In this document: positions 2,856 through 46,654 of the stretch, piece after piece
Layout of the letters: each line of letters opens with the position of its first letter
How positions within the stretch are numbered: the stretch's first letter is position 1
The notes under the pieces: model-generated
What the model was told of the DNA's origin: nothing
The model's input: the letters and a program-made list of their open reading frames with translations, nothing else
Database searches by the model: none
Source: an uncultured delta proteobacterium
GTDB taxonomy: Bacteria > Myxococcota > Myxococcia > Myxococcales > Anaeromyxobacteraceae
NCBI GenBank assembly: GCA_963766715.1
Contig: CAVYBH010000012.1
Coordinates: forward strand, 384,001 to 448,000
Length of the DNA: 64,000 bases
Reading direction: 5' to 3'
Position numbers and translations under genes: made by a program

Positions 2856-5429
2856 CACCACTCTCCCTTCAGCCCGAGGATGGGCAGGATGGGCAGGCCG
2901 GTCGTGGCCGTGCGATCCGTGTAGTCGTAGTTGTACGTCCAGCCTTCCTGGTTCTTCCGGTTGGTCACGTTCTGGGTGTCGAGGTAGAGGGTCAGGGTCC
3001 AGTCCTTGAAGGTCCAGATCTTGTCGATGCGCAGGTCGAGGGCCCAGAAGCTGGCCAGCCGATCGGAGTTGGTGTCGCCGTAGACGGGGACGAAGACCCC
3101 GGTGGCGGAGTCGAAGACCGAGCCGACGACGGGCGTGGAGGGGTTTCCCGAGACGTAGCGGAAGCGCGCCCCCGCCGACCAGCCCCTCCCGAGCTGGTAG
3201 GTCCCGAGCACGGTCAGGTTGCTCGGCTGGTCGAAGTCGAAGGGGCGCTCCCCGTCGGGCGGGTCGGTGCGCAGCGAGCGCTGGTAGGTGTAGGCGAGCC
3301 ATCCCGCGAACCGATCCCCGATGGCCACCTTGAGCAGGGTCTCCACGCCGTAGATGGTGCCGGTTCCGGTGCTGGTGTACCGCGGCGCGTTCGGGTCGTA
3401 GTTCGAGCTCGAGTTCGCGATGGCCTGCCGGGTGAGCGACTTGTAGAAGGGGGTCACGTCGAGGGTGATGCCGTCGACGATCCGCTGTCCCAGGCCGAGG
3501 GAGACCTGGAGGCTGCGCTCGGGCAGGAGGAACGGGTTGCCGGTCACCGTGTTGCTCTTCTGGGCGGCGGGCGCCTGCTGGTACATGCCGACGCCCGCCC
3601 GGAGGACGGTTCCCGGGACGACCTCCCACCGGGCCAGGAGGCGCGGGTCGACGGCCCACTCGTTGATCTCGGAGAACCAGTTCGCGCGGACGCCGGGCAG
3701 GATCGAGAGGTTCGGGATCGGGGCCCAGCGCAGCTCGGCGAAGGCCGCGGGGGACTGGATCCAGGTGGTGAGCTGGGCGCCGATCTGCGGCAGCGACGAG
3801 GGCGGCAGGGGATTGGGCCCCGTGGAGCTGGGCAGGTTCACGGAGATCCTGGCCCGGTCGAACTCGAGGTCGAGGCCGCCGCGCAGCTGCCACTGCGCGT
3901 CGAAGTCGTAGCTCCAGGTGCTGCGCAGGGCCAGCCGCTGCAGGTTGAGGTCGAAGAAGTACTGGGGCCCGAGCTGGGTGCTGATCTCCTGCAGGCCGAT
4001 CACCATCGACGTGTCCTGCCGGAAGCGGGGCGAGAACGTCTTCGAGTACTCCGCCTGCAGGTTGTAGAAGGAGACCCGCGCGTCGATCTGGCCGGTGATG
4101 GTGGGGTCGTTCATCGGCTTGTCGAAGAGGCCGACCAGCCGGTCCATCGATCCGTAGAAGATGATGCGAAGGTGCTGGCTCGCGTCGGGGTTCCAGGCGG
4201 CGATGAACTGGAAGTCGTAGAAGCGCGGGGCGGTGCTGAAGGAGAGGTTCGAGTCCTTGGGCAGGAAGAGCGGGAGCACGGTGTCGATCCAGGAGCGCCG
4301 GAACGCTCCTCCGAGGGACCAGCCCTTGCCGAGGCCGCCCTCCATCTCCACGCCCACGTCGTAGACGTTCACGTCGGCCTGGCCGTGGAAGCCGTCCTGG
4401 CGCGGGTCGCGGACCCGGACGTCGATGATGCCGCCCTGGGCGCGTCCGTAGTCGACCGAGAAGTTTCCCGGGACGAACTCGACCGACTGGAGGAAGGCCG
4501 GGGCGAACGTGCTCCGGATCCCGCCGAAGTGATAGAGCTGCGGAATCTGCTGGGACTCGAGGAAGACCTTGCTGTCCCCCGGGGCCGAGCCGCGCAGCAC
4601 GAGGAGCCCCGCGCCGAAGGGAGCGCGCGCCGCGCCCGGCAGGTTGAGGACCGCCTTCAGCGTGTCCCCGGCCGACCCGGGCACCGTGGCCACCTGCTGC
4701 GCGGTGAGCACGTCCTTCATCACCTCCCGCTGGATCGCGGCGGCGCTCACCACGGTCTCGTTCGCGCCCCCCACGGTCTCGAGCAGGTAGTTCTCCTCCC
4801 GGGTCTCGCCGGACCGGGCCTTCACGAACAGGTCGAGCTTCTGGTGATCGGGCGGAAACGCCAGGAGCTGGAACTCCGCGTCCGGCACCTCGATCTGGAA
4901 GCGGCCCGAGCCGTCGGTGGTGGCGCGGGCGGCCACCCGGTCGCCGACCTTCGCCTCGACCGGAACGTTGGCGAGCGGGAGCCGCGAGCCCCGCTCCAGG
5001 ATGAAGCCGGTGAGCTTCACGGGGGCGGGCGCGGGGGGCGGAGGCGGCTCCTGGATCCGCAGCCGGAAGGTGACCGTGACCGGGACCGCCTCGCCGGTGG
5101 AGAGGCGCCCCGGCTCGAAGTCGAACCGGCGAGCCGCCGCCAGCGCGGCCCCGTCGAAGGGCTCGCCGGCGCCGCTCTCGACGGCGGCCTTCTCCACCTT
5201 GCCGTCGGCGCCGACGTCGAGCGAGAGGACGACGACCACCTCGGGGGAGGGGAACCTCGTGCCGGCCGGGACGTCGGCCGGGACGAGCTCCTTCAGCCGG
5301 GGCGGGCTGGCGAGCGTCGGCTCCTCGGGAGCGGCGGGTCGCCGCGGGCTGCTGCGCGAGGGCCGCGGCCGGGACGCCGAGGAAGGCGAGGAGCGCGAGG
5401 AGACGCACGGGGTGGACGGCTCGCTTCAT
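2855..5429 (-). CDS. TonB-dependent receptor with N-terminal TonB-C and carboxypeptidase-regulatory-like domains (indel near 5300-5340)
   Basis: Signal peptide at 5429, FDGAALAAARRFDFEPG TonB-C segment, plug (LNLPG..LRGS), beta-barrel pattern, C-terminal GLKGEW. Confidence 0.85.
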
Positions 5430-5433
5430 CGGT

Positions 5434-6176
5434 TCATCCCTCGAGGCGGAACTTGTAGGTCCAGGGAACGGTGGCGGGAACGGCCTTTCCCCCCCGGGTG
5501 GCCGGCCGGAAACGGAAGCGGCGGACCAGCTTCTGGGCCACCTCGTCGAAGCCGCTGCCGGCGGAGCGTATCACGCGCGATCCGGTCACCTCGCCGGTGG
5601 CCGAGACCGTGAGCTCGAGACGGACGTCCCCCTCGAGCCCGGCGCGGCGGGCCGACTCGGGGTAGAGCGCGCGCATCTCCGAGAGGTCGGGCTGGGCGAT
5701 CAGGCTCGGCGCCGAGTCCGGCTCCACGGCGTAGGCCGGGGCGTCGGGGCTCGTGCTCGTCCCGCCGGGCGTGGCGCGAAGCGCGGGGGCCGTTCCCGGG
5801 GGCGCGGTGGGAACCGCGATGCCGCCGCCGGGGACGGTGGCCTCGAGCGACACGGCGAAGCGGCGCGGGGCCGCGGGGGGAGGCGGGGTCGGGCTCGCGG
5901 GCGTGGGCAGGAGCGGCGCCGGCGCGACCGGCTGCTTCGCGGGGGCGCTCCGGGCTGGCTCCATCCGCTTCGGAGGGGGCTCCTTGGGCGGCGGAGGAGG
6001 CGGAGGGGGCTCGGGCTCGGCGGGGCGGCTCTCCACGAGGCGAACCCGCGTCGGGGGCCGGGCGCTCCGACGCACGGCGCACCGGCGGCGAGAGCAACGC
6101 CCAGGCGAGGAGGGCCGCCGTAGAGGGCGAGCGCGAGGGCCCAGCCCTGCGCTCCGGTGTGCCCGACCCGCTTCAC
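5434..6176 (-). CDS. tonB: Energy transducer TonB (N-terminal TM in shifted frame)
   Basis: Pro-rich linker, YPESARRAGLEGDV, FRPATRGG. Confidence 0.85.
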
Positions 6177-11103: not shown

Positions 11104-12644
11104 GTGGCCGGCGCCCTGATGCTGGCCGCGATCGCGGCCTTCGCCTTCGTGGAGATGGCCATCGCCCGGCAGCGCCTGGCCGGGGTGAACGCCTCCACCG
11201 CGCTCCTCAGCGAGACCATCTCGGCCTCGGTTCGCCACGCCATGATGCGGGACGAGCGCGGCGAGGCCTACGCCATCATCGACAACATCGGGCGCCAGTC
11301 CCAGATCGCCCACATCCGCATCATCAACAAGGAGGGGCGGATCACCTTCTCCACCGTCCCGGGCGAGAAGGGGACGCTCGTCGACAAGCGGGCCGAGGGG
11401 TGCCGCGCCTGCCACGAGGGGGAGAACGAGAGCCTCACGGTCCCGGTCGACGCCCTTCGCGCCCGGATCTACGAAGGGCGGGGCGGGCGGGTGCTCTCCA
11501 CGGTGACGCCCTTCCGGACCAGTCCCGATTGCACGACGAGCGCCTGCCACGTGCACCCCAGGGAGAAGACGGTGCTCGGGGTCCTCGACGTGGGCGTCTC
11601 GCTCGCCCCGGTCGACCGCGACCTGGCGTCCTTCCGGCGGGTCAGCCTCATCGTCACCGCCATCCTCGCCCTGCTGCTCGGTGCGTTCTTCTGGTACGTG
11701 GCCAACCACCGGGTGGTCCGTCCGGTGGAGGCGCTCGTGCAGGCCACGCGCCGGGTGGCCCACGACGAGCTCGACACCGAGATCCACATCGACGCCAAGG
11801 GCGAGCTGGGCCTGCTGGCGGCCTCGTTCAACGAGATGATCCGCTCGCTGCGGCGGGTGGAGGGAGAGCTCCGCCTGCTCACCGAGCAGCTGGAGGAGAA
11901 GGTCGAGGAGCGCACCGGCGAGCTCCGGGCCGCCCAGGACACGCTCGTGCGCACCGAGAAGCTCTCCTCCTGGGCAAGCTCTCCGCCTCCATCGCCCACG
12001 AGATCAACAACCCGCTGGCGGGCATCCTCACCTTCGCGAAGCTCATGATCCGGACCATCGAGCACGGACCGGTGGGCGAGGCCGAGCGGCGCACGCTGGT
12101 GAAGCAGCTGGCGCTGGTGCAGCGGGAGACCGAGCGCTGCACGGCCATCGTCCGCAACCTCCTCGACTTCGCGCGGGAGCGTCCGCTGCAGCTCAAGGAC
12201 GTGGACGTGAACCAGGTGGTGGACGAGGTCTTCTCCCTGGTGGCGAACCAGACCGCCATCCTCGGGGTGCAGGTGGAGAAGGACCTGGCCAAGGTCCCGA
12301 TGGTGGACGCCGACTTCGGGCAGCTCCGCCAGGCCTTCATCAACATCGTGATCAACGGCATCGAGGCCATGGGCAAGGGGGGGCACCTCCGGGTCGCCAC
12401 CCGGCCCCTGCCCGAGGAGGACGCCGTCGAGATCACCTTCCAGGACGACGGGCCCGGCATCCCGCCCGAGCTGATGCAGAAGATCTTCGATCCCTTCTTC
12501 ACGACGAAGGAGAAGGGCACCGGGCTGGGACTGTCGGTCGTCTACGGCATCGTCGACCGCCACAAGGGACGCGTTTCGGTGGAGAGCGAGCCGGGCAAGG
12601 GCACACGCTTCACCATCCAGCTCCCGGCGGCGCGCGGGTCGTGA
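11104..12644 (+). CDS. Sensor histidine kinase with periplasmic c-heme motifs and HAMP (true start probably slightly upstream; indel near 11970)
   Basis: TM-periplasmic(CRACH, CTTSACH)-TM-HAMP; AHEINNPL H-box, FTTKEKGTGLGL G-box. Confidence 0.88.
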
Positions 12645-12645: not shown

Positions 12646-13175
12646 GTGGAGGCCATACACCTTTGGTGGATCGGTGAGAAGGATCCCGGCCTCAGGACGC
12701 TCGAGCACGTCCGCCTGCACCTGGAGCGCGCCCTGGGCGCGCCGGCGCGCATCTGGGACGACCCCGAGCGGCCGCCCGACGCCTACGACCACCGGCGGAA
12801 GCAGTGGTCCACGGCGCGGATCCTGGCATGGCTCGGGAAGGCCGGGCCTCCCGGCAAGGTGCTCGCCGTGACCGACCAGGACCTCTTCATCCCCATCCTC
12901 ACGTTCGTCTTCGGCGAGGCCCAGCTCAACGGAAGGGCGGCGGTGGTCTCCACCGCCCGGCTCGGGGAGCCCGGGCTTCCCGATCCCCGCGTGGCGCTCG
13001 AGCGGCTCGCCAAGGAGAGCGTCCACGAGATGGGGCATTGCTTCGGGCTCGTCCACTGCGACAGCCCGGGGTGCGTCATGGGGCGCTCGCCGAGCGCCCG
13101 GGACGTCGACAAGAAGCGCGGAGAGTTCTGCACCCGGTGTCGAGGCCGCATCATGCGGAGCGGGGGAGAGGGTCA

Positions 13176-13179
<4 letters not shown>
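12646..13179 (+). CDS. Archaemetzincin-family Zn metalloprotease
   Basis: FVFGEA, HEMGHCFGLVHC, CVM Met-turn and C-terminal FCxxC. Confidence 0.88.
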
Positions 13180-14561
<1,382 letters not shown>

Positions 14562-14876: not shown

Positions 14877-14891
14877 TGGCCCACCCCTTGC
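14877..14891 (+). promoter_or_regulatory. Sigma54 (-24/-12) promoter
   Basis: TGGCCCACCCCTTGC = GG-N10-GC, 24 nt before the ATG at 14916, which has a strong GGAGGAGG RBS. Confidence 0.75.
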
Positions 14892-14915
14892 GAAGGGAGA
14901 AGGGGAGGAGGCCGC

Positions 14916-15140
14916 ATGACTTGCCCGTACCTCACCGAAGTGACGATGGTCTTCTGCCAGGCATCTCCGCAGAAGAAGCTCATCCCCAGCGACCGGATCA
15001 GCACGGCGTCGGCCTGCGAGGGAGACGCCTTCAACGGCTGCGCCCTGTACCGCGAGGCCCTGGCCCGAGCCCTCCACACCATCGAAGAGCTCGAGACCGA
15101 GATCAAGGCCTCGACGGAGAAGAAGGGGGCGCACTCGTGA
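14916..15140 (+). CDS. Small four-cysteine protein (74 aa)
   Basis: MTCPYL..FC..KLIP..AC..GCALY; strong RBS; GC-rich codon usage. Confidence 0.75.
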   Translation: MTCPYLTEVTMVFCQASPQKKLIPSDRISTASACEGDAFNGCALYREALARALHTIEELETEIKASTEKKGAHS

Positions 15141-15205
15141 TCGCCGCCACCGCCCTCGCAGCCGCTGGACTGGTCGTCGTCGGATTCATCAACTGCATCC
15201 CCTGA
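15137..15205 (+). CDS. Possible 22-aa hydrophobic peptide
   Basis: GTGA start/stop overlap; VIAATALAAAGLVVVGFINCIP. Confidence 0.35.
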   Translation: MIAATALAAAGLVVVGFINCIP

Positions 15206-15231
15206 CCAAAGCGAAGCACGGAGAGAACACC

Positions 15232-16146
15232 ATGAAGCTCGGCAGACGAACCTTCCTGCAGATCGCCGGCGCAACGGGAACCGCGGCACTCGTCACCCTC
15301 CCGGGGCGGGCGCAGGCGAACGGCACCATTCCCATCGCCGGCGAGGACGAGAGCTCCGTCCTCGTCGACACCACCAAGTGCGTCGGCTGCCGCGGCTGCG
15401 AGGCCGCCTGCGCCGAGGCCAACAAGCTGCCCGACCCGCCCACCGACGGCGCGGCCTTCGCGGCCATGCGCCCCACCGGTCCCGACTGCTTCACCGTCGT
15501 GAACCGGACCGAGAAGCGGGACGGCACGCCGCGGTACGTGAAGCGCCAGTGCATGCACTGCGTCGAGCCGGCCTGCGCCTCGGCCTGCCCGGTCCGCGCG
15601 CTCGACAAGCAGGCCACCGGCCCGGTGTCCTACGACGGCAGCAAGTGCATGGGCTGCCGCTACTGCATGGTCGCCTGCCCGTTCTCGGTGCCCAAGTACG
15701 AGTACAACTCGGCGCTGCCGGTGGTCCGCAAGTGCACGTTCTGTGCGGGCCGCCAGGCCGAGGGCAAGCGCCCCGCCTGCATCGGCGTCTGCCCGAGCGG
15801 CGCGCTCACCTACGGGACGCGCGGCCGGATGGTCGAGGAGGCGCGGCGCCGGGTGTACGGCAACCCGGACAAGTACACGCAGCACATCTACGGCGAGCAC
15901 GAGGCCGGCGGGACGAACTGGCTCTACATCACGGACGTCCCGTTCGAGAAGCTCGGGTTCGAGGTCGCCGTCAACGACAACTCCTACCCGAAGCTGGTCA
16001 AGGGCGCGCTCGGCGTGCCGCCGGTGGTCATGACGCTGTGGCCGCCGCTCCTGATGGGGCTCTGGGCGTTCTCACACCGCGACAAGAGCAAGTCGCACGA
16101 CACCGATCACGGCGGCGGCAAGGCCGACGGAGGCAACCATGTCTAG
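15232..16146 (+). CDS. Tat-exported 4x[4Fe-4S] protein, HybA/HmcB/NrfC-like
   Basis: RRTFL Tat motif, four Cys cluster motifs, IYGEHEAGGT, C-terminal TM. Confidence 0.9.
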   Translation: MKLGRRTFLQIAGATGTAALVTLPGRAQANGTIPIAGEDESSVLVDTTKCVGCRGCEAACAEANKLPDPPTDGAAFAAMRPTGPDCFTVVNRTEKRDGTPRYVKRQCMHCVEPACASACPVRALDKQATGPVSYDGSKCMGCRYCMVACPFSVPKYEYNSALPVVRKCTFCAGRQAEGKRPACIGVCPSGALTYGTRGRMVEEARRRVYGNPDKYTQHIYGEHEAGGTNWLYITDVPFEKLGFEVAVNDNSYPKLVKGALGVPPVVMTLWPPLLMGLWAFSHRDKSKSHDTDHGGGKADGGNHV

Positions 16147-17363
16147 CATCGTGACCACGACCACCCCCGAGCGCTCGGGCGGTTGGGTCCAGGAGCGCAT
16201 CTTCCTCGGCATGACGTTCCGGGAGTACCTGAAGTCCCTCTGGACGCCCTTCAACATCGTCTGCGCGGCCATCCTCGCCGTGGGCCTGCCGGTGATCTTC
16301 TTCCGGTTCTACCTGGGGCTGGGCGCCACCACGAACCTCTCCCAGACCCAGCCGTGGGGTCTCTGGATCGGGTTCGACATGATGACCGGCATCGCGCTGG
16401 CCGCCGGCGGGTTCACCATCGGTGCGACGGTGGAGATCTTCGGGCTCGAGGAGTACCACGCCATCGAGCGGCCGGCGATCCTGACCGGCTTCCTCGGCTA
16501 CATGATGGCGGTCATCGGCCTCATCGCCGACCTGGGCAAGCCCTGGAACATGGTCGGCATCTTCTCCAACAACGGGACGCAGTCGGTCCTCTTCGAGGTC
16601 GCCTGGTGCGTGTGCTGCTACACCACCGTCCTCATGCTGGAGTTCGCCGTGCCGTTCTTCGAGTGGCTGGGCTGGGAGCGCTTCTACCGCCCGCTCAAGA
16701 AGGCGCTGCTCGCCCTCACCGTGCTGTCCGTCATGTTCTCGACCATGCACCAGTCGGCGCTCGGCTCGCTCTTCATCATCGCCCCGGGCAAGCTCCACCC
16801 GCTCTGGTACTCCAGCCAGATCTTCCTGTTCTTCTTCATCAGCGCCATGATCGCCGGCATCTGCATGGTCATCGTGGAGAGCACCATCTCCCACAAGGTC
16901 TTCTCCGAGCAGTTCAAGGGGCAGCACATCGACGTGGAGAAGCTCTCCATCGGCCTGGCCAAGGCCGGCGCGGTGGTGATGTTCGCCTACTTCTTCCTGA
17001 AGCTGCAGGGCGTCATCGACAACCACGCGCTCGGGCTCATCGGAGTCGGCTTCTACGGCAAGTGGTTCCTGGTGGAGATGCTGGGCTTCGTGCTGCTCCC
17101 CTCGCTGCATGTTCGCCTGGGGCGCCCGGAACGAGAAGATCCTCCCGGTGCGCATCGCCGCCATCCTGGGCGTGCTCGGAATCGTCCTCAACCGGCTCAA
17201 CGTCTCGCTCATCGCCTACAACTACAACCAGCCGGTCCGCTACTGGCCCAGCTGGATGGAGGTGTCGGTCTCCCTGATGCTGGTGGTGGTCGGCATCCTG
17301 GCCTTCCGCTGGATCGTGAACCGCATGCCCGTGCTCCGGCCGCTCCCTGGCGCGGAGCACTGA
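16139..17363 (+). CDS. NrfD-family integral membrane subunit, HybB/HmcC-like (indel near 17105)
   Basis: TNLS..PWGLWIGFD, DLGKPW, STMHQSALGSL, KLHPLW, YWPSWME. Confidence 0.9.
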
Positions 17364-17370
17364 GGACGCC

Positions 17371-18060
17371 ATGCACGGCAACGAATTCCTGAGCGGGTAC
17401 GCCGCCAAGCTGGTCGAGTACGGGCTGGCGGTCACCTACCTGGTCCTGTTCGTGGGCTTCTGGCGCTACGTGCAGGGCGGCAAGGGGGCCGAGCGGGCGG
17501 TCGAGGTGGCCGAGCCGGAGCAGGCCGTGGCGACCGGGTGGTTCTCGGTGCCCACCGGCGTGGCGCTCCACCCGGGTCACACCTGGGCGCGGATGGAGGC
17601 CGACGGCTCGGTGGCCGTCGGGCTCGACGACCTCGGTCACCGCCTCGTCGGCGACGTGGACCGGGTGACGCTCCCGGCCCGGGGAGCCCGGGTGGAGCAG
17701 GGAGAGCCCGCGGTCTCGCTCGCCGCAGGGGGACGGAGCGTGAAGGTCGTGTCCCCGGTGGACGGGGAGGTCATCGCCTACAACTCCGCCCCGGACACGC
17801 ACGACGACCCGTACGGCCAGGGCTGGCTCTTCCGGGTCCGCCCGGAGAACTGGAAGCGCAGCCGCGCGCAGCTCCTGGAGGGAGCGGCGGCGCGCGAGTG
17901 GCTCGAGGAGCAGGGGCGGCTGCTCGCCTCCCGCCTGGGCTCCGAGCCGGTGCCCGTCCTCCAGGACGGCGGCGCCCCGGTTCACGGCATCGCCCGCGAG
18001 ATCGACCCGGAGCACTGGGACGCCATCGCGCGAGAGTTCTTCCGCACGCAGGAAACCTAG
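17371..18060 (+). CDS. Membrane-anchored glycine-cleavage-H-like protein without lipoyl Lys
   Basis: N-terminal TM; HPGHTW, VGLDD, SPVDGEV, DPYGQGWLF; C-terminal QDGG extension. Confidence 0.85.
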   Translation: MHGNEFLSGYAAKLVEYGLAVTYLVLFVGFWRYVQGGKGAERAVEVAEPEQAVATGWFSVPTGVALHPGHTWARMEADGSVAVGLDDLGHRLVGDVDRVTLPARGARVEQGEPAVSLAAGGRSVKVVSPVDGEVIAYNSAPDTHDDPYGQGWLFRVRPENWKRSRAQLLEGAAAREWLEEQGRLLASRLGSEPVPVLQDGGAPVHGIAREIDPEHWDAIAREFFRTQET

Positions 18061-18069
18061 GGGACAGAC

Positions 18070-18415
18070 ATGACCATCCAGGGAAAGACGTTCCGCCTCC
18101 TCGCCGTCCTCGCCTCCGCGGTGCTGGCCACCGCGGCGGCCGCCGACGGGCTCGAGAAGCTGCCGCCCGACTACACCTTGCCGCAGTCGGAGGGCAGCCC
18201 GGGCAAGGTGATCTTCAGCCACTCGAGCCACGTCGACGTGAAGGCGCCGGGCTGCACCCGGTGCCACCCCAAGCTCTTCAAGACCCTCGAGAAGGGCGCC
18301 ACGGCCGACGGGCAGCGGATCACGCCACAAGGTCATGGAGGCTGGCGGCCAGTGCGGAGCCTGCCACGGGAAGGCCGCCTTCAACTTCGAGAGCTGCGAC
18401 CTCTGTCACCGGTAG
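18070..18415 (+). CDS. Triheme c7-type cytochrome c (one extra C near 18325)
   Basis: Signal peptide, VIFSHSSH, CTRCH; removing one base gives HKVME..CGACH..CDLCHR-stop. Confidence 0.8.
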
Positions 18416-18419
18416 TGTC

Positions 18420-19118
18420 ATGGCCCCGGCGCTCGACCTGCTGACCGCGATGGGCGTCTTCCTGGCCGGGCTCCTCGCCCGGCTGGGAATCGTGGTGGGG
18501 GTCCTGCTCCTCCTGGCGGTGCCGGTGGCCTTGCTGGGCGGCGGCGTGCGGGCCTTCCGCGCGCTGCGGCTCCGGGCGATGGGCTACCGGAGCGCCGGGG
18601 CGCTCCGCTTCCGGGATGGCCTGCGCTACGCGCCGGGCCACACCTGGATCCGGCCGGACGGGCAGCGCTTCCGCGTCGGGCTCGACGACCTCGCCCAGAA
18701 GCTCCTGCCCTGGGCGGTCGCCGTGGAGTTGCCGCGCCCGGGCCAGCCGGTGCAGGCGGGGGAAGCCGTGGCGCGGATCTCCTGCGGTGGCCAGGAGGCG
18801 CGGGTCGCCGCCCCGTTCTCGGGCCGGATCGTCGCGATCAACACCGACGTCCTGGGCGAGCCGACGCTCGTGAAGAGCGAGAGCTACGGCCGGGGCTGGC
18901 TGTTCGCGATCGAGCCGGTCGACGGGGCCTGGAGAGGGTTGCCCGACGGCGAGCGCGCGCGCGGCTGGATGCGCGAGGAGGGCGAGCGGCTGGCGCGCTT
19001 CTACGAGCAGCACCTCGGGTACGCGGCGGCGGACGGGGGCGATCTCGTCGGCCCGCCCGCGTCGCTCCTCGGGGAGTCGGGGTGGAGGGCGCTGACGCGG
19101 GCCTTCCTCCGGACCTGA
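18420..19118 (+). CDS. Second membrane-anchored GcvH-like protein without lipoyl Lys
   Basis: Hydrophobic N-terminus; YAPGHTW, VGLDD, APFSGRIVAIN, YGRGWLF; ADGG extension. Confidence 0.85.
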   Translation: MAPALDLLTAMGVFLAGLLARLGIVVGVLLLLAVPVALLGGGVRAFRALRLRAMGYRSAGALRFRDGLRYAPGHTWIRPDGQRFRVGLDDLAQKLLPWAVAVELPRPGQPVQAGEAVARISCGGQEARVAAPFSGRIVAINTDVLGEPTLVKSESYGRGWLFAIEPVDGAWRGLPDGERARGWMREEGERLARFYEQHLGYAAADGGDLVGPPASLLGESGWRALTRAFLRT

Positions 19119-19141
19119 AGACGTTGTGGTGCGGGAGGGGT

Positions 19142-19175
19142 GGGGCGCTCCCGAAAGGGAGCGCCCCTGTTTCTT
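19142..19175 (+). terminator. Intrinsic terminator
   Basis: GGGGCGCTCCC-GAAA-GGGAGCGCCCC followed by TGTTTCTT. Confidence 0.75.
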
Positions 19176-19433: not shown

Positions 19434-20474
19434 ATGAAGAGGTTCTTGCTGGCGCTCGTGGTCGCTCTCGTGGCCACCGCGGGGCGCGCAGAGATCCCTG
19501 CCGAGCAGGACAGCTGCCTGGGCTGCCACGGCAGCGACCCGTCCATGTCGATGGACCTGCCGAGCGGCGAGAAGCTCCCGCTCTACGTGGACCAGGCGCA
19601 CTTCGGCAAGTCCGTGCACGGCGACATGCTTCGCTGCACCGACTGCCACACCGACAAGGGCGACTACCCGCACGAGTCGAAGCCCTTCAAGACCCGCCGC
19701 GACGTCACGGTGGCCTATTACGAGCAGTGCAAGAAGTGCCACTTCTCGAACTACACGAAGACGCTCGACGGCGTTCACTACCAGCTCGCGCAGAAGGGCA
19801 ATCGCCAGGCCGCGCTCTGCGTCGACTGCCACGGGTCGCACGGCATCGGCCGGCCGGGCGAGCCCCGCACGCGGGTCTCCGAGACCTGCTCGACCTGCCA
19901 CAAGGAAGTGTTCGAGGTCTACAAGGGCAGCGTGCACGGCAAGGCCGTCACCCAGGGCAACGGCGACGTCCCGGTCTGCACCGACTGCCACCGCGCGCAC
20001 GACGTGGCCGACCCGCGGGCCGGCGCGCTGTCGCTGCGCACCGCCGAGATCTGCGGCCGCTGCCACACCGACCAGAAGCTCATGAAGCGCTACGGGCTCT
20101 CCACCAACGTGGTCGACAGCTACCTCTCCGACTTCCACGGCATGGCGGCGTCCCTGCAGAAGGGCAAGAAGGGCAAGGGCGATCGCCTCGCGGCAGGCTG
20201 CACCGACTGCCACGGGGTGCACGACATCCAGCGCCCCAACGACCCGCGCTCGTCGGTCATGCAGGCGAACCTCGTGAAGACCTGCGGCAAGTGCCACGTG
20301 GGCGCCACCGCCGACTTCCCCAAGGCCTGGATGTCCCACTACGAGCCCAGCCTGAAGAAGTCGCCGCTCGTGTGGAGCGTCCAGCTCTTCTATTACATCC
20401 TCATCCCGTTCATCCTCGTCAGCCTCGCCATCCAGATCGCGCTGCACCTCTGGCGCGTCGTGGTGAACCGATGA
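19434..20474 (+). CDS. Nonaheme cytochrome c with C-terminal membrane anchor
   Basis: Signal peptide; nine CxxCH (CLGCH, CTDCH, CKKCH, CVDCH, CSTCH, CTDCH, CGRCH, CTDCH, CGKCH); SVHG repeats. Confidence 0.92.
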   Translation: MKRFLLALVVALVATAGRAEIPAEQDSCLGCHGSDPSMSMDLPSGEKLPLYVDQAHFGKSVHGDMLRCTDCHTDKGDYPHESKPFKTRRDVTVAYYEQCKKCHFSNYTKTLDGVHYQLAQKGNRQAALCVDCHGSHGIGRPGEPRTRVSETCSTCHKEVFEVYKGSVHGKAVTQGNGDVPVCTDCHRAHDVADPRAGALSLRTAEICGRCHTDQKLMKRYGLSTNVVDSYLSDFHGMAASLQKGKKGKGDRLAAGCTDCHGVHDIQRPNDPRSSVMQANLVKTCGKCHVGATADFPKAWMSHYEPSLKKSPLVWSVQLFYYILIPFILVSLAIQIALHLWRVVVNR

Positions 20475-21245: not shown

Positions 21246-22238
21246 ATGACCGGCCAGAGGTGGATGGACTTCGCCGGCCAGGCGATCTTCCACACGCTGG
21301 TCGCGGCGCTGGTGATCGAGGCGCTGGTGCGCCTGTGGGGCGTCCGGGAGCCGCTGCAGCGGACCGGCTTCCGCCTGCTCGCGCTGGCCTGGCCGCTGAT
21401 CGTGGTCCCGGCGCTCTTCCTCCTCTTCCCCGGCCGGGAGGGCGAGGCCTTCCGGGACGCCCGGTCCCTCTTCGCGGGGCACCACTGGAACGACCTGTCG
21501 TTCCTGGGCATCGGCCTCTACGCCTGGTGGATCGCGGGGATGGCGGCGATGGGGCTCGCCCTCTTCCTCCTCGACCTCGTCCCCTGGCTCCGGGCGCGCA
21601 GCGCGGAGCCGCCTCCCTGGCTGGCGCGGAGCGCGGAGGGCGAGCGGGCCCTCGAGGCGCTCGCGCGCGCCGCCGCCTCCCTGGGCATGGAGGCGCCGCC
21701 GCTCGTCTTCGTTCCCGATGGGCCGCCGGTGCTCTACTGCACCGGGACGCGCCGCCCGTCGGTGGTCATCTCCCGCGGGGCGGTCGACCTGCTCGACCCC
21801 GCCGAGCTGACCTGCGCGCTGGCCCACGAGCTGGCCCACCTGGAGCGCCGGGACCCGGCGCTCTCCTGGGCGCTCATGGGGGCTCGCGCGCTCATGTGGT
21901 TCAACCCCGGCGTGCAGGTCCTCGTCCGGGCGCTGGCCCGCGACGCCGAGCGGGTGGCCGACGAGCGCGCCGCCGCTGCGAGCGGGGACCGGCTGGCGCT
22001 GGCGAGCGGCCTGCTCCAGCTCTACCGGGCCACGGAGGGGCGCATCCCGTCCCGCGCGGCCGAGCCCTTTCCGCTCTCGGCCTCGCTCGCCGAGCCCATC
22101 GCCCGGGCCCGGGCCCACGACATCGAGCAGCGCTGCAGGGCCCTCCTCATCCCCCCGCCCGAGCCGGTGCGCCTGGCGGGCCTGCGGTTCGCCGCCGCGG
22201 CGGGCGGCCTCGGCCTGCTGCTGTTCTTCGTGGTATGA
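21246..22238 (+). CDS. M56 (BlaR1-like)/M48 membrane Zn metallopeptidase
   Basis: Several TMs, LAHELAHL, WFNP, ERVAD. Confidence 0.8.
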   Translation: MTGQRWMDFAGQAIFHTLVAALVIEALVRLWGVREPLQRTGFRLLALAWPLIVVPALFLLFPGREGEAFRDARSLFAGHHWNDLSFLGIGLYAWWIAGMAAMGLALFLLDLVPWLRARSAEPPPWLARSAEGERALEALARAAASLGMEAPPLVFVPDGPPVLYCTGTRRPSVVISRGAVDLLDPAELTCALAHELAHLERRDPALSWALMGARALMWFNPGVQVLVRALARDAERVADERAAAASGDRLALASGLLQLYRATEGRIPSRAAEPFPLSASLAEPIARARAHDIEQRCRALLIPPPEPVRLAGLRFAAAAGGLGLLLFFVV

Positions 22239-24660: not shown

Positions 24661-25314
24661 ATGTCGAAGATCCGCGTGCTCCTGGCCGACGACCACGCCA
24701 TCCTCCGGGAAGGGGTCCGGGCGCTGCTCGCCCTCTCCGACGACATCGAGGTCGTGGGCGAGGCGGTGGACGGCCAGCGCGCCGTCGAGGCCACCCGGCA
24801 GCTCGATCCGGACGTGGTCGTCATGGACATCGCCATGCCGGGGCTCGGCGGGCTCGAGGCCACGCTCGAGATCAAGAAGGCGGGGCTGCGCTCCAAGATC
24901 CTCATCCTCTCCCAGTACGAGGACCGGGAGTACGTGCGGCGCCTGCTCAAGGCGGGCGTGTCCGGCTACCTCCTGAAGAAGTCGGCGGGCGCCGAGCTCG
25001 CGAACGCCATCCGGGCCGTCCACCGCGGCGGCCTGGTCCTCGACCCCGAGGTGGCCCGGACCGCGATGGAGGACTCCGGGCCGGCGTCGCCCGGCGGCGC
25101 GGATCCCTACGAGACGCTCACCGACCGGGAGAAGCAGGTGCTGAAGCTGGTCGCGGAAGGGCTCGCCAACAAGGAAGTGGCCGAGGTGCTGGGCATCAGC
25201 GTCAAGACCGCCATGTCCCATCGCGAGAAGGTGATGGAGAAGCTCGGCCTGCACAACCGGACCGAGCTCGTGCGCTTTGCGCTGCGGCGCGGCGTGATTC
25301 GCGTCGATCCTTGA
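24661..25314 (+). CDS. NarL/LuxR-family response regulator
   Basis: ADDH, MDIAMP receiver; [11 protein letters not shown]. Confidence 0.95.
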
Positions 25315-25447
25315 CGTTGGGCCATATCCCCCGTTTCCCGATGGACTGCGCGGGATCCCCCACCCACCCGGTGGAGGGAGGCGCCGCGATCGTCGAAACA
25401 CGGCCCATTTCGTCGGGTCCGCGCGCTCCCGGCGCCCGGACCGATTC

Positions 25448-27020
25448 TTGCTGCTGGAGCGGCTCGCCGTGATCCATGGGGATCGGGATCGTTCACGGCC
25501 CGAGGGCGGGGAGAGATTGCGGGTTCTGTTCACGAGTGCGCCGGAACCGAGCTGTGCGGCCGAGTCCGCGGGGGCCTGGCTCCCGCTCGCGCTCGTCCAC
25601 CTGGCCGGTGCGGTCCGGGCCGCCGGGCACGAGGCCGAGCTCGTCGACGCGCTCTCCCTGGGGCTGACCGCTGCCGACCTGGGCCGCATCATCCAGGCCA
25701 GCGCGCCCGACGTGGTCTGCGTCTCGTCGGCGACCGCCGGCTTCCCGGCCGCCCTGGATACCTGCCGGCGCGCCCGCGGGCTCGGCTGCACCACCGTGGT
25801 CGGCGGCATTCACGCCTCGTTCATGTATTCCGAGTTCCTGCCCACCGGTTCCGTGGACTTCGCCGTCGTCGGGGAGGGGGAGGAGACGCTTCCGGAGCTC
25901 CTGGCCTGCCTCGAGGCAGGCGACGACCCGGCGCGGGTGGCCGGGATCGCCTTCTCCCTGGGCGGGCGGGTCGTCCGGACCGCGCCGCGCCCCCGGATGT
26001 CGGTGCTCGACCCGATGCCCAAGGCCTGGGACCTCCTCGACTGGTCCCAGTACACGTGGGCGGGCCGGCCTGGCTCCCGCATGGGCGCCATCACCACGTC
26101 CCGCGGATGCCCGCGGAGCTGTGCGAGCTGCTCCCAGGCGACGCAGTTCGAGGGAACCTGGCGCTCCCGGACCCCGGGGTGCGTGGCCTACGAGCTGGCC
26201 GGCCTTCGCCGCGACCACGGCGTGGACGTGGTCGGCTTCTTCGACCACGCCCCCACCGCCGACGCCGGCCGGTTCGCCGAGCTGATCACCCGGGTGACCG
26301 AGGCGGAGCTCGGGCTCGACCTGGTGCTCTGGTCGAGCGTCCAGGACGTCCTCCGGGACGAGGCCGCGCTCGCTCGCTGGCGCGCGGCCGGGGTGGTCCA
26401 CGTCGGGACTCTGCCGCGATCCGTCCGAGGATCGGCTCGACGGACTGGAGGCGGACCGGTCGCTCGTCGCCGGAAGGCGCGCGGTGAAGGCGCTGCGGGA
26501 CCACGGCATCACCTCCGAGACGTCCTACTGGATGGGGTTTCCCGACGAGACGTCCCGCCGGGTCGAGGAGTTGCTGGAGCGGGCCCGGGCCTGGGACCCG
26601 GACGTCGCCCACTTCTCCCTGCTCGCGCCGCTTCCGTACACGCCGGCCTGGCGGGTTCACGGCACGCACGTGGCGACCCGGGACTACCGGCGCTTCAACC
26701 ACCGCGACCCGGTGGTGAAGCCGCGGGAGATGTCGCTCGACGAGGTCGGCCTCGAGGCGGCGCGCTGCTACCGCCGGTTCTACGCGGAGCGCGCCCGCCG
26801 GGAGTCGGTGCGCGACGGGCGGCAATCCGGCCCGTGGCACGTGCACCTCGGAGCCCCGGCGCTCCGGGCCCGGATCCTGGCAGGTGCGACGGACGAGGAG
26901 TTGCGCGCGCTCGCCCCCGTGGCTGCGATTCCCCCGGGCCTGAGGGCCGGCCGCATCCCTTTCGCGGGGGGGCCCGGCCGGGGCGCTTCGGGCGCAACCG
27001 CTGCGCGAGGCACGGAATAG
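25448..27020 (+). CDS. B12-binding-domain radical SAM protein, BchE-like (indel near 26410; start uncertain)
   Basis: [44 protein letters not shown]. Confidence 0.75.
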
Positions 27021-27048
27021 AAACTGTAGTAAATACAGTATGTTGTGT

Positions 27049-27063
27049 AGGCACGCGCATTGC
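27049..27063 (+). promoter_or_regulatory. Sigma54 promoter of hemA
   Basis: AGGCACGCGCATTGC = GG-N10-GC, 25 nt upstream of the hemA ATG. Confidence 0.7.
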
Positions 27064-27088
27064 TAAGGTCACGGAGCCGGAGGGGTCG

Positions 27089-28363
27089 ATGCTCGTCGCC
27101 ATCGGGGTGGACAGGAAAAGGGCTTCGGTTGCTTCGCGGGAGAGGCTCGCCGCCGGCGGCGACGACCTCGCCGACGTCATCCGGTCGTACGGCGCGCTCG
27201 ACGGCGTCGACGAGGCGTTCGTGCTCTCCACCTGCTACCGGGTCGAGGTCTACGCCGCGTCGTCCTGCCCTGCCGCCGCCGCCGCCAGCCTCACCGAGGC
27301 GCTCCGGGCCCGCGCCGGCGACGCCGAGCTTCCCGTCTTCGACCTCCGGGGCGAGGAGGCGTTCCGCCACCTCTCGCGCGTGGCCTCCAGCCTCGAGTCC
27401 GGGGTGGTCGGGGAGCCGCAGGTCCTCGGCCAGGTGAAGGAGGCCTTCGGCCGTTCCGCCGAGGCCGGCACCGTCGGCAAGGAGCTCTCGGCCGTCATCG
27501 CGCGCGTCCTCCAGGTCGCGAAGCGGGTCCGGACCGAGACCGCCATCGGCCGGGCCGGCGTCTCGTGGGGACACGCCTCGGCCGATCTCGCCGAGAAGGT
27601 CCTCGGTCCGCTCGAGGGGCGTCGCGCCGTGGTGGTGGGCGCCGGCGAGATGGCGCGCCTCTCGGCCCAGCACCTGCGCGAGGGCGGGATGGAGGTGGCG
27701 GTCGTCAACCGCACCTTCGCCAACGCCGAGGCGCTCGCCCGGGAGATCGGCGGCACCGCGCACCCCATCGAGGCGCTCGCCGAGGAGCTGGTCCGCGCCG
27801 ACGTGGCCGTGGTCGCCGCCCCGGTCGCGCTCGCGGCGCTCGAGCCCTCCGGGGCGCCGGCGCTCATGAAGCGGCGCCGGCACCGGCGCCTGCTCCTCAT
27901 CGACCTCGCCGTCCCTCGCGCCGTTCCTCCCGCGCTCGGCGACGTCGACGGCATCTACGTCTGCGACGTGGACGACCTGGCGCGCATCCAGCGCCAGGCG
28001 CAGGAGGCCCGGGTCGGCGCCATCCAGGACGCCGAGCGGGTCATCGACGAGGAGGTCACCCGCTTCGCCCGCGACCTCGCCGAGCGGCGCGCCGCGCCCC
28101 TCATCGCCGCGGTCCGGACCCGGGCCAGCGCGATCGCCCGGGAGGAGGTCGAGCGCACCGTCCGCCGCCTGGGAGGCGATCCGGAGCTCGAGCGGCGGCT
28201 CGACGCCCTCGCGGGCGCGATCGTCGCGAAGCTCCTTCACCAGCCCAGCGTCTGCCTTCGCCGGGCGGGGCACGACGCCGAGGGGGGCGACGAGCTGATG
28301 GCCGCCGCGGCCCGGATCTTCGACGTCGGCGCCGACGCCGGGCCGGCCTCGCTGGCGGGCTGA
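27089..28363 (+). CDS. hemA: Glutamyl-tRNA reductase
   Basis: STCYRVE (catalytic Cys), [25 protein letters not shown]. Confidence 0.92.
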
Positions 28364-28462: not shown

Positions 28463-28527
28463 TCTCCTTGACCCGGCCGTCCGAAAAGTCACCCTTTTAC
28501 CGGTGACTTGGCGCCAGGTGGGTGATA

Positions 28528-28542
28528 TGGCGCGCTCCTTGC
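28528..28542 (+). promoter_or_regulatory. Sigma54 promoter
   Basis: TGGCGCGCTCCTTGC = GG-N10-GC upstream of the kinase ATG at 28577. Confidence 0.75.
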
Positions 28543-28576
28543 GAAACGACCCACCCGGCAGGACCGGGACCGGCCC

Positions 28577-30082
28577 ATGAACCAGATCGCCAATCTATGG
28601 AGCAAGCTGGCCCGGAGCGTTCGCGCCCGGATCATCCTGCCCACGGCGGTGCTCTTCGCGGCCGTCCTCGGGACCATGGTCTACGTGGCCGTCAGCGCCT
28701 ACGGGAGCGACATCGAGAAGGTGCAGCGGGAGCGGGCCGAGATCTTCGCCGCCAACGTGGCCTCCGGTGTCACCCAGACGATGATGGAGGGGCAGCCGAA
28801 CCAGGTGCCGGACCTCCTCGAGCTGGCCCGCAGCCACCGCGCCGACCTGGAATCCATCAGCCTGCTCCGGCCGGACGGGCAGGTGGCCTACTCGACGGAT
28901 CGGCGCCTCATCGGCAACCAGCTCTGGAACGGGATGTCGAGCTTCAGCCAGGCCCGCGTCGTGTCCGCGCCGGGCGGCGTGGAGTCGCAGTACGCGGTGG
29001 TCCGGCCGATCGCGAACGTGGAGAAGTGCGCCTCCTGCCACGGGCGGGAGTCGCGCATCAACGGCTGGGTCGACCTGCGCTTCACGCGCGCCCCTGCCAT
29101 GGCGGCCCAGGGAGAGCTGGCGCGCACGCTCGGAATCAGCACGGGGGTGGCCCTGCTCATCCTGCTCGCCATCGCCTGGTGGCTCATCGGCCGCGAGGCC
29201 GTGACACCGCTCAAGCGACTGGTGGCGGCCATGAGCCGCGCCGAGGCCGGGGATCTCTCGGTCCGGGCCGACGAGGGGCGCCCCGACGAGCTGGGCGTGG
29301 CGGCTCGCGGCTTCGACGCCACGCTGGCCGCCTTGCGCCGGAGCCAGGCCGAGCTCGAGGCCTTCTACCGGGAGCGCATGGTGCGGGCCGACCGCTTCGC
29401 CACCGTGGGCGAGATGGCCACAGGCCTGGCGCACGAGATCAAGAACCCCCTGGCCGGCCTCTCGGGCGCGCTCGAGCTCCTCGCCGAGGACCTGAGCGGG
29501 AACCCGCGCCAGGCGGACGTGGTCGGAGAGATGCGCCACCAGGTCGCGCGGCTCACGAACACGATGGAGAGCCTGCTCTCCTTCGCCCGGCCGCCCAAGG
29601 CCCGGCTGCGGGACACCGATCTCAACGCGGCCCTGGAGAAGGTCCTCTTCCTGGTGCGGCAGCAGCGGCGGCTCGCCGCCGTCCACGTCGAGTCCGAGCT
29701 CGGGGAGATCCCCCACGTCCTCGCGGATCCCAGCCAGCTCGAGCAGGTCTTCCTCAACATCTGCCTGAACGCCTGCCAGGCCATGGGACCGGCCGGCGGG
29801 CGGCTCACCGTCCGCTCCCGGGCGACCGAGGGGCGGGTCGTCGTGGACGTCGAGGACACCGGGCCGGGCATCCCCGAGAACGTCCGCCCCAACCTCTTCA
29901 AGCCGTTCTTCACGACCAAGCGCGAGGGGAACGGGCTCGGTCTCGCCATCTCCGCGCGCATCGTCGCCGAGCACGGCGGAAACATCGGATACCGGTGCCC
30001 GCCCGGCGGGGGGACGATCTTCACCGTCGCCCTCCAGCCCTCGAGGAGCCCGGCGGAGCGCCCCTCGGAGATGACGGCATGA
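28577..30082 (+). CDS. Sensor histidine kinase with periplasmic CASCH and HAMP
   Basis: TM-periplasmic(CASCH)-TM-HAMP, AHEIKNPL, FTTKREGNGLGL. Confidence 0.92.
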   Translation: MNQIANLWSKLARSVRARIILPTAVLFAAVLGTMVYVAVSAYGSDIEKVQRERAEIFAANVASGVTQTMMEGQPNQVPDLLELARSHRADLESISLLRPDGQVAYSTDRRLIGNQLWNGMSSFSQARVVSAPGGVESQYAVVRPIANVEKCASCHGRESRINGWVDLRFTRAPAMAAQGELARTLGISTGVALLILLAIAWWLIGREAVTPLKRLVAAMSRAEAGDLSVRADEGRPDELGVAARGFDATLAALRRSQAELEAFYRERMVRADRFATVGEMATGLAHEIKNPLAGLSGALELLAEDLSGNPRQADVVGEMRHQVARLTNTMESLLSFARPPKARLRDTDLNAALEKVLFLVRQQRRLAAVHVESELGEIPHVLADPSQLEQVFLNICLNACQAMGPAGGRLTVRSRATEGRVVVDVEDTGPGIPENVRPNLFKPFFTTKREGNGLGLAISARIVAEHGGNIGYRCPPGGGTIFTVALQPSRSPAERPSEMTA

Positions 30083-32362: not shown

Positions 32363-32388
32363 GCGGACCCCCTTCGCTCTCTTGCAGA

Positions 32389-32403
32389 GCAACTCGGATG
32401 CCA
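32389..32403 (-). promoter_or_regulatory. Sigma54 promoter of the RpoH-like gene
   Basis: Minus strand TGGCATCCGAGTTGC = GG-N10-GC. Confidence 0.75.
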
Positions 32404-32581
32404 CTCTCGGTGAGGGGAAACGCAACGGGTCGCGGACGGAGCCGCGCCGCCACAGGCGAAGGGAATGGCCTGATCAGGGCAGCTTGGCCGCCTGGGACGG
32501 CGATGACCTCCCCGATGGAGGGGCCGGAAGATAGGGGGATCCCCAAATGGTCGGCGGTGTGGGTTCTGACCCATCCGGGTG

Positions 32582-46625: not shown

Positions 46626-46654
46626 TTGACAGGGCACGGCCGTTTCCGTAATGT
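46626..46654 (+). promoter_or_regulatory. Sigma70 promoter of the leu/ilv operon
   Basis: TTGACA-N17-TAATGT. Confidence 0.6.

Follow-up and report, generated by a model that had tools for sequence, protein, structure and literature searches.

A transcription unit at positions 14877-19175 (+ strand) of a 64,000-nucleotide (nt) stretch of DNA from an uncultured member of the Anaeromyxobacteraceae (contig CAVYBH010000012.1; the whole stretch is called the window below) encodes a membrane-bound redox core of a known kind together with an accessory cassette, which is the new part. The core consists of an iron-sulfur (Fe-S) protein and an NrfD-like membrane subunit (together NrfCD) and of a c7-type triheme cytochrome. 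The cassette comprises a small protein with four cysteine residues (the 4-Cys protein), a hydrophobic micropeptide, and two membrane-tethered GcvH-fold proteins, H1 and H2, that lack the lipoyl lysine. Our overall reading, to which we give a probability of about 0.55, is that core and cassette stand under one sigma-54 promoter and that the cassette has a regulatory or adaptor role. The narrower claim that it serves as such a device in sigma-54-controlled respiration, and not as an electron carrier, is put forward tentatively, at somewhat less than even odds. The features of the unit are:

14877-14891, + strand: sigma-54 -24/-12 promoter element TGGCCC-N5-TTGC (GG-N10-GC), 25 nt upstream of the first ATG (14916)
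14916-15140, + strand: 4-Cys small protein, 74 amino acids (aa), no signal peptide, no match to a Pfam or NCBIfam family
15137-15205, + strand: hydrophobic single-helix micropeptide, 22 aa, whose GTG start overlaps the stop of the 4-Cys gene
15232-16146, + strand: HmcB/HybA-like periplasmic Fe-S protein, 304 aa, with a twin-arginine (RR) signal, four Cys groups and a C-terminal membrane helix
16139-17363, + strand: HmcC/HybB/NrfD-like quinone-interacting membrane subunit, frameshift at about 17107
17371-18060, + strand: H1, 229 aa; membrane helix at the N-terminus, then a linker, a GcvH-fold domain without the lysine, and a helical extension at the C-terminus that contains DGG
18070-18415, + strand: c7-type triheme periplasmic cytochrome, frameshift at about 18320
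18420-19118, + strand: H2 (P0001), 232 aa, second membrane-tethered lysine-less GcvH-fold protein
19142-19175, + strand: intrinsic terminator; hairpin at 19142-19167 with 11 pairs (10 G-C), a GAAA loop and a T-rich tail

Both ends of the operon that an earlier note on this DNA had drawn, a promoter at 14877 and a terminator at 19142, were confirmed, and the orthologous loci agree with them. The promoter is positionally conserved in 10 of 10 orthologous loci, where it reads TGG-N8-TTGC in nine cases and TGG-N8-TTGA in one and lies 39-50 nt before the ATG. By itself the motif is no rarer than chance predicts, with 9 matches against 4.6 expected in the window, which has 70% G+C. With GG and GC 10 nt apart, a conserved element and an adjoining gene for a bacterial enhancer-binding protein, it shows the features by which a sigma-54 promoter is recognized. 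The terminator is strong, and hairpins were read by eye at the same position after H2 in several orthologous loci, e.g. L012, L020, and L021. The genes in between are tightly spaced. The earlier note had placed the genes for the 4-Cys protein, the Tat-exported Fe-S protein, the NrfD-like protein, H1, the triheme cytochrome, and H2 correctly. Its list was incomplete, since the frameshifts, the 22-residue micropeptide, and an adjoining CbcBA-type operon had been overlooked.

The unit lies within a longer conserved series, kept in full in seven genome loci from Anaeromyxobacteraceae or under the name 'delta proteobacterium': histidine kinase, M54 metalloprotease, NtrC-type activator, 4-Cys protein, micropeptide, NrfC, NrfD, H1, c7, H2, multihaem cytochrome, cytochrome b, and M56 metalloprotease. 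This order is unbroken in two finished single-contig genomes, and the series as far as H2 is also present in loci titled Acidobacteria or Vicinamibacteria. Within the order sampled, strong H2 matches (expect value E < 1e-50) were obtained in 16 of 19 genomes of the family, including this genome, and in none of the 12 outside it, where matches were at the level of canonical GcvH only. With a 4-Cys profile, matches were obtained in 53 of the 401 genomes sampled from the phylum and in 49 of 67 from the family, as well as in 20 of 401 in the phylum to which the genome of locus L026 belongs.

GcvH-fold proteins and the accessory cassette

H1 and H2 score well above the Pfam cut-off for PF01597 (GCV_H; 63.6 and 70.6 bits, respectively, cut-off 22.2), but do not reach that of the GcvH equivalog TIGR00527 (56.9 and 63.6 bits, cut-off 115.85). 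An AlphaFold model of H1 based on 95 sequences has a predicted local distance difference test (pLDDT) score of 85. It starts with a helix of 34 residues, from which a disordered linker leads to a domain rich in beta structure, and ends in a helical extension. A Foldseek search with this model returned H-proteins as top matches (3a8j_E, 1onl_A, and 3ab9), with E values of about 1e-12, target template modeling (TM) scores of 0.85-0.86, and root-mean-square deviations of 1.8-2.2 Å. The best of them was the Escherichia coli protein 3a8j_E (E 1.2e-12, target TM 0.86, 1.8 Å, 30% identity).

The earlier note had claimed that the lipoyl lysine is missing, and this is borne out when 16 H1 and 15 H2 sequences are aligned to the canonical GcvH of this genome. 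The canonical gene is located between gcvT and gcvP on another contig of the same genome, and its product has K in the lipoyl-lysine column, whereas the 31 H1 and H2 sequences have G, E, D, or A and never K. A lysine one place past the hairpin tip occurs in some H1 and H2 proteins and is not conserved. In H2 and in the fused forms described below, a cysteine is often, but not universally, found two positions ahead of the tip; it is missing in H1 and in several H2. The motifs that form the cavity, H.W near the N-terminus and PY..GW, are retained in both proteins, and the C-terminal extension carries an invariant DGG in both families. H1 and H2 share their fold with GcvH, LbpA, and GcvH-L, but differ from them in the absent lysine, the membrane anchor, and the conserved C-terminal extension, and no gcvT, gcvP, or ligase gene lies nearby. 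The number of lysine and arginine residues is greater C-terminal than N-terminal to the helix in 25 of 28 H1 and 12 of 12 H2 sequences, and because of this excess the GcvH-like domains are predicted to reside in the cytoplasm, with which the soluble fusions are consistent.

The four cysteine residues of the 4-Cys protein (Cys-3, Cys-14, Cys-34, and Cys-42) are invariant or nearly so in 62 sequences. Of 19 loci, 18 have a comparable open reading frame (ORF) for the micropeptide in the corresponding position, one of these being doubtful. H1-type genes were counted in loci that had all been gathered by H1, H2, or 4-Cys queries, and 99 were obtained. In 52 of the 81 cases where at least 400 nt of flank are visible, the gene directly upstream of H1 is NrfD, only a few bases away. 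The GcvH-like genes are thus conserved beside NrfCD, whereas the earlier note had named a lack of such conservation as a finding that would refute its view. H2 follows within 900 nt 3' of H1 in 43 of 55 cases with at least 1000 nt visible.

The cassette also occurs as an independent unit. Stand-alone H1-H2 pairs without NrfCD were found in 15 loci, each with the micropeptide directly upstream (15/15), and in 14 of them the motif TGGC.C-N5-TTGC precedes the micropeptide by 43-82 nt. Several of these loci have a rubrerythrin gene downstream and a receiver-HATPase gene upstream. A second micropeptide-H1-H2 set without NrfCD is present in the genome under study itself (contig C15, 156525-157933; locus L032, 6523-8000, minus strand), although its H1 seems broken or shortened. 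Two further loci carry the cassette next to the regulators and without NrfCD, namely L088 with the order kinase, M54, NtrC, 4-Cys, H2, H1, H2, and L104 with NtrC, 4-Cys, H1, H2 on a contig that starts inside NtrC.

A search with the 4-Cys profile against 1.84 billion representative proteins gave 292 matches at E <= 0.001. Among the best 150 of these 292, 48 are at least 190 aa long, and 36 of the 48 match GCV_H at E <= 0.01, 23 of them at the Pfam cut-off. These fusions combine one or two 4-Cys domains with a GcvH-like domain and the DGG extension, and they are soluble, i.e. without a membrane helix. One fusion, P0339, adds a receiver domain and another, P0326, a NUDIX domain. No longer fused forms of H1 were found in the search, which is weak evidence.

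Loci with fused forms were obtained from the phylum of the L026 genome (L129 and L131-L133). In L129 (8221-16155), a fusion with two 4-Cys domains heads a row of genes for HdrD-like and HdrA-like proteins, the small and large subunits of a [NiFe]-hydrogenase, and a HycI-type protease, with an NtrC-type activator gene divergent to the row. The fused form of L131 adjoins a Qrc/ACIII-like set, in which a cytochrome c and a protein of 679 aa with a weak match for molybdopterin binding are accompanied by NrfD, an Fe-S protein, and one more GcvH-like protein. In L132 and L133, a histidine kinase with an [FeFe]-hydrogenase large-subunit-like sensor and Fe-S motifs (3629-5656 and 3828-5855, respectively) precedes M54, NtrC, and a 4-Cys-GcvH fusion of 381 aa; those genes stand there without a redox module. 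These two loci may represent a hydrogen- or redox-sensing version of the same circuit.

Redox core and its likeness to known systems

The Fe-S protein matches PF13247 (Fer4_11) above the cut-off (E 6.6e-20) and HybA at E 5.8e-69. Its RR motif is visible, while the Pfam TAT_signal model yields only 17.6 bits against a cut-off of 22.7. The NrfD-like protein matches PF03916 (44.5 bits, cut-off 25.8, E 2.1e-11) and HybB (E 4.6e-64). The best NCBIfam matches of the two proteins are HmcB (NF045715; E 7e-101, 337 bits, positions 2-289 of 307) and HmcC (NF045714; two pieces of 337.7 and 85.2 bits, E 1e-100 and 5e-24, positions 2-372 of 376), in both cases below the equivalog cut-offs of 420 and 550, respectively. 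The orthologues of the c7 cytochrome have three CxxCH motifs in 15 of 15 cases and a length of 107-116 aa where the start is clear, and an intact orthologue (L011) scores 61 bits on the c7 triheme model TIGR04257 (cut-off 40).

The order NrfC-NrfD-H1-c7-H2 was found repeatedly in genome and metagenome loci. Furthermore, in locus L029 of a KSB1 genome (9410-10972) a single 520-aa frame runs from NrfD through an additional membrane helix into a c7 triheme domain, and because of this natural fusion c7 and NrfD are taken to form one working complex. The L029 locus also encodes cytochrome b twice, and besides multihaem cytochromes it has a cytochrome of 916 aa that bears a type IX secretion system (T9SS) sorting tail.

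On these grounds, the redox core is very probably a quinone:periplasmic-cytochrome oxidoreductase of the Hmc/Nhc/Cbc4 type. It would be composed of a Sec-exported c7 cytochrome, an HmcB/HybA-like four-cluster Fe-S protein exported by the Tat system, and an HmcC/NrfD-like subunit without cofactors, and would shuttle electrons between the menaquinone pool and periplasmic cytochromes. In an anaerobic, metal-respiring family the most likely direction is from quinol to cytochrome. The core may work alongside the bc cytochrome of the adjoining CbcBA-type operon.

No hydrogenase, molybdoenzyme, GcvP/T/L, or lipoate ligase was detected among the cluster genes and 31 other window ORFs, in agreement with the earlier note. 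That note had regarded the routine presence of a hydrogenase, a molybdoenzyme, or gcvP/T genes in homologous clusters as one finding that would overturn its view; among 84 neighbour ORFs in 19 loci of the same cluster type, no hydrogenase, molybdoenzyme, other enzyme subunit, or gcvP/T was found. The distant fused relatives of the cassette do adjoin a hydrogenase (L129) or the molybdopterin-like protein (L131). On the other hand, the absent catalytic subunit had been viewed as an anomaly, and this is not borne out. The c7 cytochrome is the periplasmic partner, and enzyme-less modules on the same plan are known from Hmc/Nhc and Cbc4 and from PMC9386147, so that the absence is not anomalous.

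The Hmc (HmcABCDEF) and Nhc (NhcABCD) complexes of Desulfovibrio are among the closest in plan, as they combine a periplasmic multihaem cytochrome c, an HmcB-type four-cluster Fe-S protein, and an HmcC/NrfD-type quinone subunit and have no enzyme subunit. In the available part of PMC8076601, Nhc is given as a cytochrome c3:quinone oxidoreductase, and Hmc and Nhc as having an extra small membrane subunit. The core probably works like these complexes but does not appear to be a member of them, because its scores are below the equivalog cut-offs, its cytochrome has 3 haems (c7 type) instead of the 16 of HmcA or the 9 of NhcA, and no HmcE/HmcF-like genes (CCG-domain/HdrD-like or cytochrome b) are present inside the window operon, unlike in Hmc. 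Instead, the window has the GcvH-like proteins, the 4-Cys protein, the micropeptide, and sigma-54 control.

A similar plan is described for Cbc4 (CbcSTU) of Geobacter sulfurreducens, with a small inner-membrane-associated c-type cytochrome, an Fe-S protein, and a membrane subunit. It is predicted to transfer electrons from menaquinol to the periplasm in this metal reducer, its physiological role being unknown according to the accessible text of PMC13591261. The likeness was judged by that description and not by sequence. CbcS is a tetrahaem cytochrome in contrast to the triheme protein of the window, and the same text, as far as accessible, mentions no GcvH-like partner for Cbc4. For iron reducers, an excerpt of PMC9386147 describes modules of FeS, NrfD, and a multihaem cytochrome that replaces the molybdopterin subunit. 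A publication on the gene combination studied here was not found in open-access full texts and bioRxiv, and within this literature the earlier statement that no complex of such composition has been characterized holds so far.

Role of the cassette

Three genes upstream of the operon are retained with it:

11104-12644, + strand: sensor histidine kinase with a HAMP domain and a periplasmic domain with CxxCH and CxxxxCH, frameshift at about 11970
12646-13179, + strand: archaemetzincin-family (M54) metalloprotease, between kinase and activator
13176-14561, + strand: NtrC-type sigma-54 activator with receiver, AAA+, and HTH_8 domains (PF00158, E 1.4e-71; PF00072; PF02954)

Both haem motifs of the kinase are retained in 16 of 16 orthologues, which makes it a likely haem-c sensor. 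The M54 protease is identified by PF07998 (E 6.4e-22) and NF033823 (152 bits, cut-off 145), and its gene keeps its position in the orthologous loci as well as in loci with fused 4-Cys-GcvH forms. Among 401 genomes sampled from the phylum, 283 contain an archaemetzincin-like M54 gene at E <= 1e-10. Most of these genes represent a paralogue at a greater distance, and the close orthologues are located some 2 kb away from the 4-Cys gene.

In the mechanism that we propose, the haem-carrying kinase would sense the periplasmic redox state, and its signal, via the NtrC-type activator, would fire the sigma-54 promoter, so that the quinol:cytochrome module (NrfD, Fe-S protein, and c7) and the cassette would be made together. 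The micropeptide and the helices of H1 and H2, one per H protein, would be embedded in the membrane, and on its cytoplasmic side the lipoate-free domains would have the 4-Cys protein, probably metal- or Fe-S-binding, as their partner. The cassette would belong to the circuit of sensor kinase, M54, and NtrC and would report or gate the state of the co-encoded redox module, possibly by feedback on the kinase/activator circuit or by control of the coupling of the module. A regulatory or adaptor role is favored over a structural, maturation, or carrier role because the cassette is likewise found beside other modules, beside regulators alone, and in a receiver fusion, and because no electrons are expected to reach the cytoplasmic side of an NrfD protein that has no cofactors.

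Several observations weigh against this reading. The AlphaFold model of the 4-Cys protein is poor (pLDDT 65.5), and its metal site is therefore a guess. Moreover, at least three genomes with a strong M54 orthologue keep the rest of the locus without a detectable 4-Cys gene, one of them still with the micropeptide, and thus the 4-Cys protein appears dispensable in some lineages. The position of H1 directly after NrfD fits a physical subunit equally well, and the cysteine near the hairpin tip of many H2 and fused forms leaves room for other chemistry. Among the 50 H1 genes with both flanks visible, NrfD, c7, and H2 accompany 26 and NrfD is absent from 15, shares that are biased because the loci were gathered by H1, H2, or 4-Cys queries.

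The earlier note had suggested a fold repurposed as a structural or signalling subunit. That note is supported on the composition, the missing lysine, and the linkage to NrfCD, whereas a mere structural subunit is unlikely. As fixed structural subunits of the NrfCD-c7 complex, H1, H2, and the micropeptide would pack their helices on NrfD in the manner proposed for the small subunits HmcD/NhcD, and the cytoplasmic domains would cap or gate the proton pathway of NrfD. The NrfD-H1 adjacency (52/81), the order NrfD-H1-c7-H2 (26/50), and the tight spacing in the window agree with this, as does the additional small membrane subunit of Nhc and Hmc reported in the part of PMC8076601 cited above. Yet the domains are predicted to face the cytoplasm, micropeptide-H1-H2 units stand alone behind a sigma-54 promoter of their own, and L088 and L104 carry the cassette without NrfCD. 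The 4-Cys and receiver fusions point the same way, since the 4-Cys-GcvH forms are soluble and lack the membrane helix, and they keep company with other redox modules, adjoining cytoplasmic Hdr/hydrogenase genes in one case. We consider a purely structural role improbable, at odds of between one in four and one in five.

Somewhat more plausible, but still doubtful, is the possibility that the invariant unit is, instead of the quinone module, a hitherto unrecognized signalling cassette of redox sensor kinase, M54, and NtrC, with the lipoate-free GcvH-fold proteins as its sigma-54 target. The kinase would be of a haem-c type here and [FeFe]-hydrogenase-like elsewhere, and the GcvH-fold proteins would be either membrane-tethered with the micropeptide or fused to the 4-Cys metal domain. 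They would act as a protein-protein switch that plugs into several respiratory modules, i.e. NrfCD-c7, Qrc/ACIII-like, CbcBA-like, and Hdr-hydrogenase modules, and M54 may release or reset the switch by cutting the linker of H1.

Cysteine-rich accessory proteins such as FdhE serve Tat-exported redox enzymes. A comparable maturation or assembly aid, in which the 4-Cys protein would donate Fe-S clusters or metal to the Tat-exported Fe-S protein or other redox proteins before export and the GcvH-fold proteins would hold the substrate at the membrane, would account for the four conserved cysteines, for the place of the 4-Cys gene directly upstream of the Tat Fe-S gene, and for the association of the cassette with several different Fe-S-rich modules. 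We regard it as a long shot, for the stand-alone pairs and L132/L133 have no Fe-S client nearby, the receiver-domain fusion P0339 points to signalling, and the three genomes without a 4-Cys gene keep the locus. Equally remote is a swinging group, either a modification of another residue or a persulfide on the cysteine close to the hairpin, that the GcvH-like proteins would carry back and forth from the 4-Cys protein to an enzyme in the cytoplasm, comparable to LbpA in Hdr-like sulfur oxidation. The retained fold and cavity motifs (H.W and PY..GW) and the cysteine near the hairpin tip of many H2 and fused forms speak for it. One fused form also adjoins Hdr-like genes, and lipoate-binding proteins are tied to an Hdr-like system in the available part of PMC6067878. 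However, this cysteine is missing in H1 and several H2, a conserved lysine is found neither at nor beside the tip, and the window and the neighbours scanned contain no lipoate ligase or sulfur-transfer gene except for one rhodanese in L107.

Inner-membrane quinone:cytochrome modules set the energy yield of metal- and electrode-respiring bacteria at a given redox potential, and how these modules are switched is poorly understood. Such modules and their sensor-regulator genes are accompanied, in several phyla, by a conserved and widespread group of proteins whose function is unknown. Should the cassette prove to be a regulatory device, one of the oldest folds for carrying a cofactor would have found a new use, and the control of anaerobic respiration in soils and wetlands could be approached through it. 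Genetics in cultured relatives should be feasible, as finished genomes of the family hold the intact locus.

Adjoining operon, frameshifts, and other genes in the window

Past the terminator, a separate transcription unit encodes a bc cytochrome, and a metalloprotease gene follows:

19434-20474, + strand: CbcA-like cytochrome; nine CxxCH motifs, and a His in the C-terminal membrane helix
20471-21233, + strand: cytochrome b of the FdnI/cytochrome b561 type (CbcB-like), frameshift at about 20953
21246-22238, + strand: M56/M48 membrane metalloprotease of the BlaR1/HtpX type, conserved 3' of the cytochrome b gene

The cytochrome b gene is in frame in the orthologues, one of which resembles formate-dehydrogenase gamma subunits (55.8 bits, under the cut-off). 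No consistent TGGC.C-N5-TTGC motif was present upstream of the cytochrome operon in 8 loci scanned, and in the window no clear sigma-54 motif was seen there. L018 (8702-9543) and L022 (829-1391) each have, in the gap from H2 to the multihaem cytochrome gene, an additional short ORF that includes a hydrophobic stretch.

According to the accessible part of a preprint (10.1101/2021.04.15.440034), CbcBA homologues occur near BccR-like sigma-54 regulators in Anaeromyxobacter, and in Geobacter the cbcBA operon starts from a sigma-54 promoter followed by a pair of hypothetical proteins (GSU0597 and GSU3489). By domain pattern and by that statement, the cytochrome/cytochrome b pair of the window fits the description of CbcBA (Cbc5 locus), in that a multihaem cytochrome with a helix at its C-terminus is paired with a cytochrome b and the gene of a sigma-54 response regulator is close by. 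The placement of GSU0597 and GSU3489 mirrors that of the 4-Cys protein and the micropeptide, a likeness of position only, as the part of the preprint consulted describes it. The window differs in having nine CxxCH motifs where seven are reported for CbcA in that text, in the NrfCD-c7-GcvH operon that sits between regulator and bc genes, and in the lack of a clear sigma-54 motif before the latter. CbcC-E of the Cbc5 locus was considered as an already described homologue and rejected, as GSU0592 is listed as a cytochrome with 12 CxxCH motifs and NrfD is not mentioned in the literature searched.

Four single-base frameshifts occur within about 10 kb, in the genes of the kinase (about 11970), NrfD (about 17107), c7 (about 18320), and cytochrome b (about 20953). 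The latter three are +1 shifts, and that of the kinase has the opposite sign. The two pieces of NrfD cover positions 2-289 and 291-372 of the HmcC profile with nothing lost between them. NrfD is in a single frame in 31 orthologous loci in which both pieces and H1 are readable, one further locus, L078, having a stop. Four contigs from two other public runs (X1 and X2) are one base shorter at 17107-17109, and one of these is otherwise identical to the window. In RNA runs, only small shares of the sequence words were present. As the X1 and X2 contigs lack the extra base and 31 loci are intact, the NrfD frameshift is taken to be an assembly error. The compared contigs are nearly absent over 18264-18385, so that the c7 break rests on analogy with NrfD; the breaks in the kinase, c7, and cytochrome b genes are probably assembly errors as well.

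Two frameshifts inside the operon and two more in neighbouring genes could also be taken as signs of decay, with the NrfD and c7 genes belonging to a pseudogene cluster. This is very improbable in view of the shorter contigs from the other runs, the clean frames on either side of every break, and the density of four indels in about 10 kb of an assembly in 18 contigs with 84.6% completeness, which points to assembly errors. The same figures suggest that residual indel errors remain and that other genes in the genome may be split. Elsewhere in the window, LeuA-like and acetolactate-synthase large-subunit domains (46630-50175), as well as a B12-binding domain and glutamyl-tRNA reductase (25298-28360), are each joined in one stop-to-stop frame, which may reflect read-through of adjacent same-frame genes or further assembly errors.

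A second pair of a HAMP histidine kinase and an NtrC-type sigma-54 activator is encoded at 28526-31468. The sole exact match to TGGYMY-N5-TTGCW in the window, TGGCATCCGAGTTGCT, lies at 32388-32403 on the minus strand, at the upstream end of a sigma-70-family open frame (31499-32473, minus strand), which may thus be the gene of a sigma-54-dependent sigma factor.

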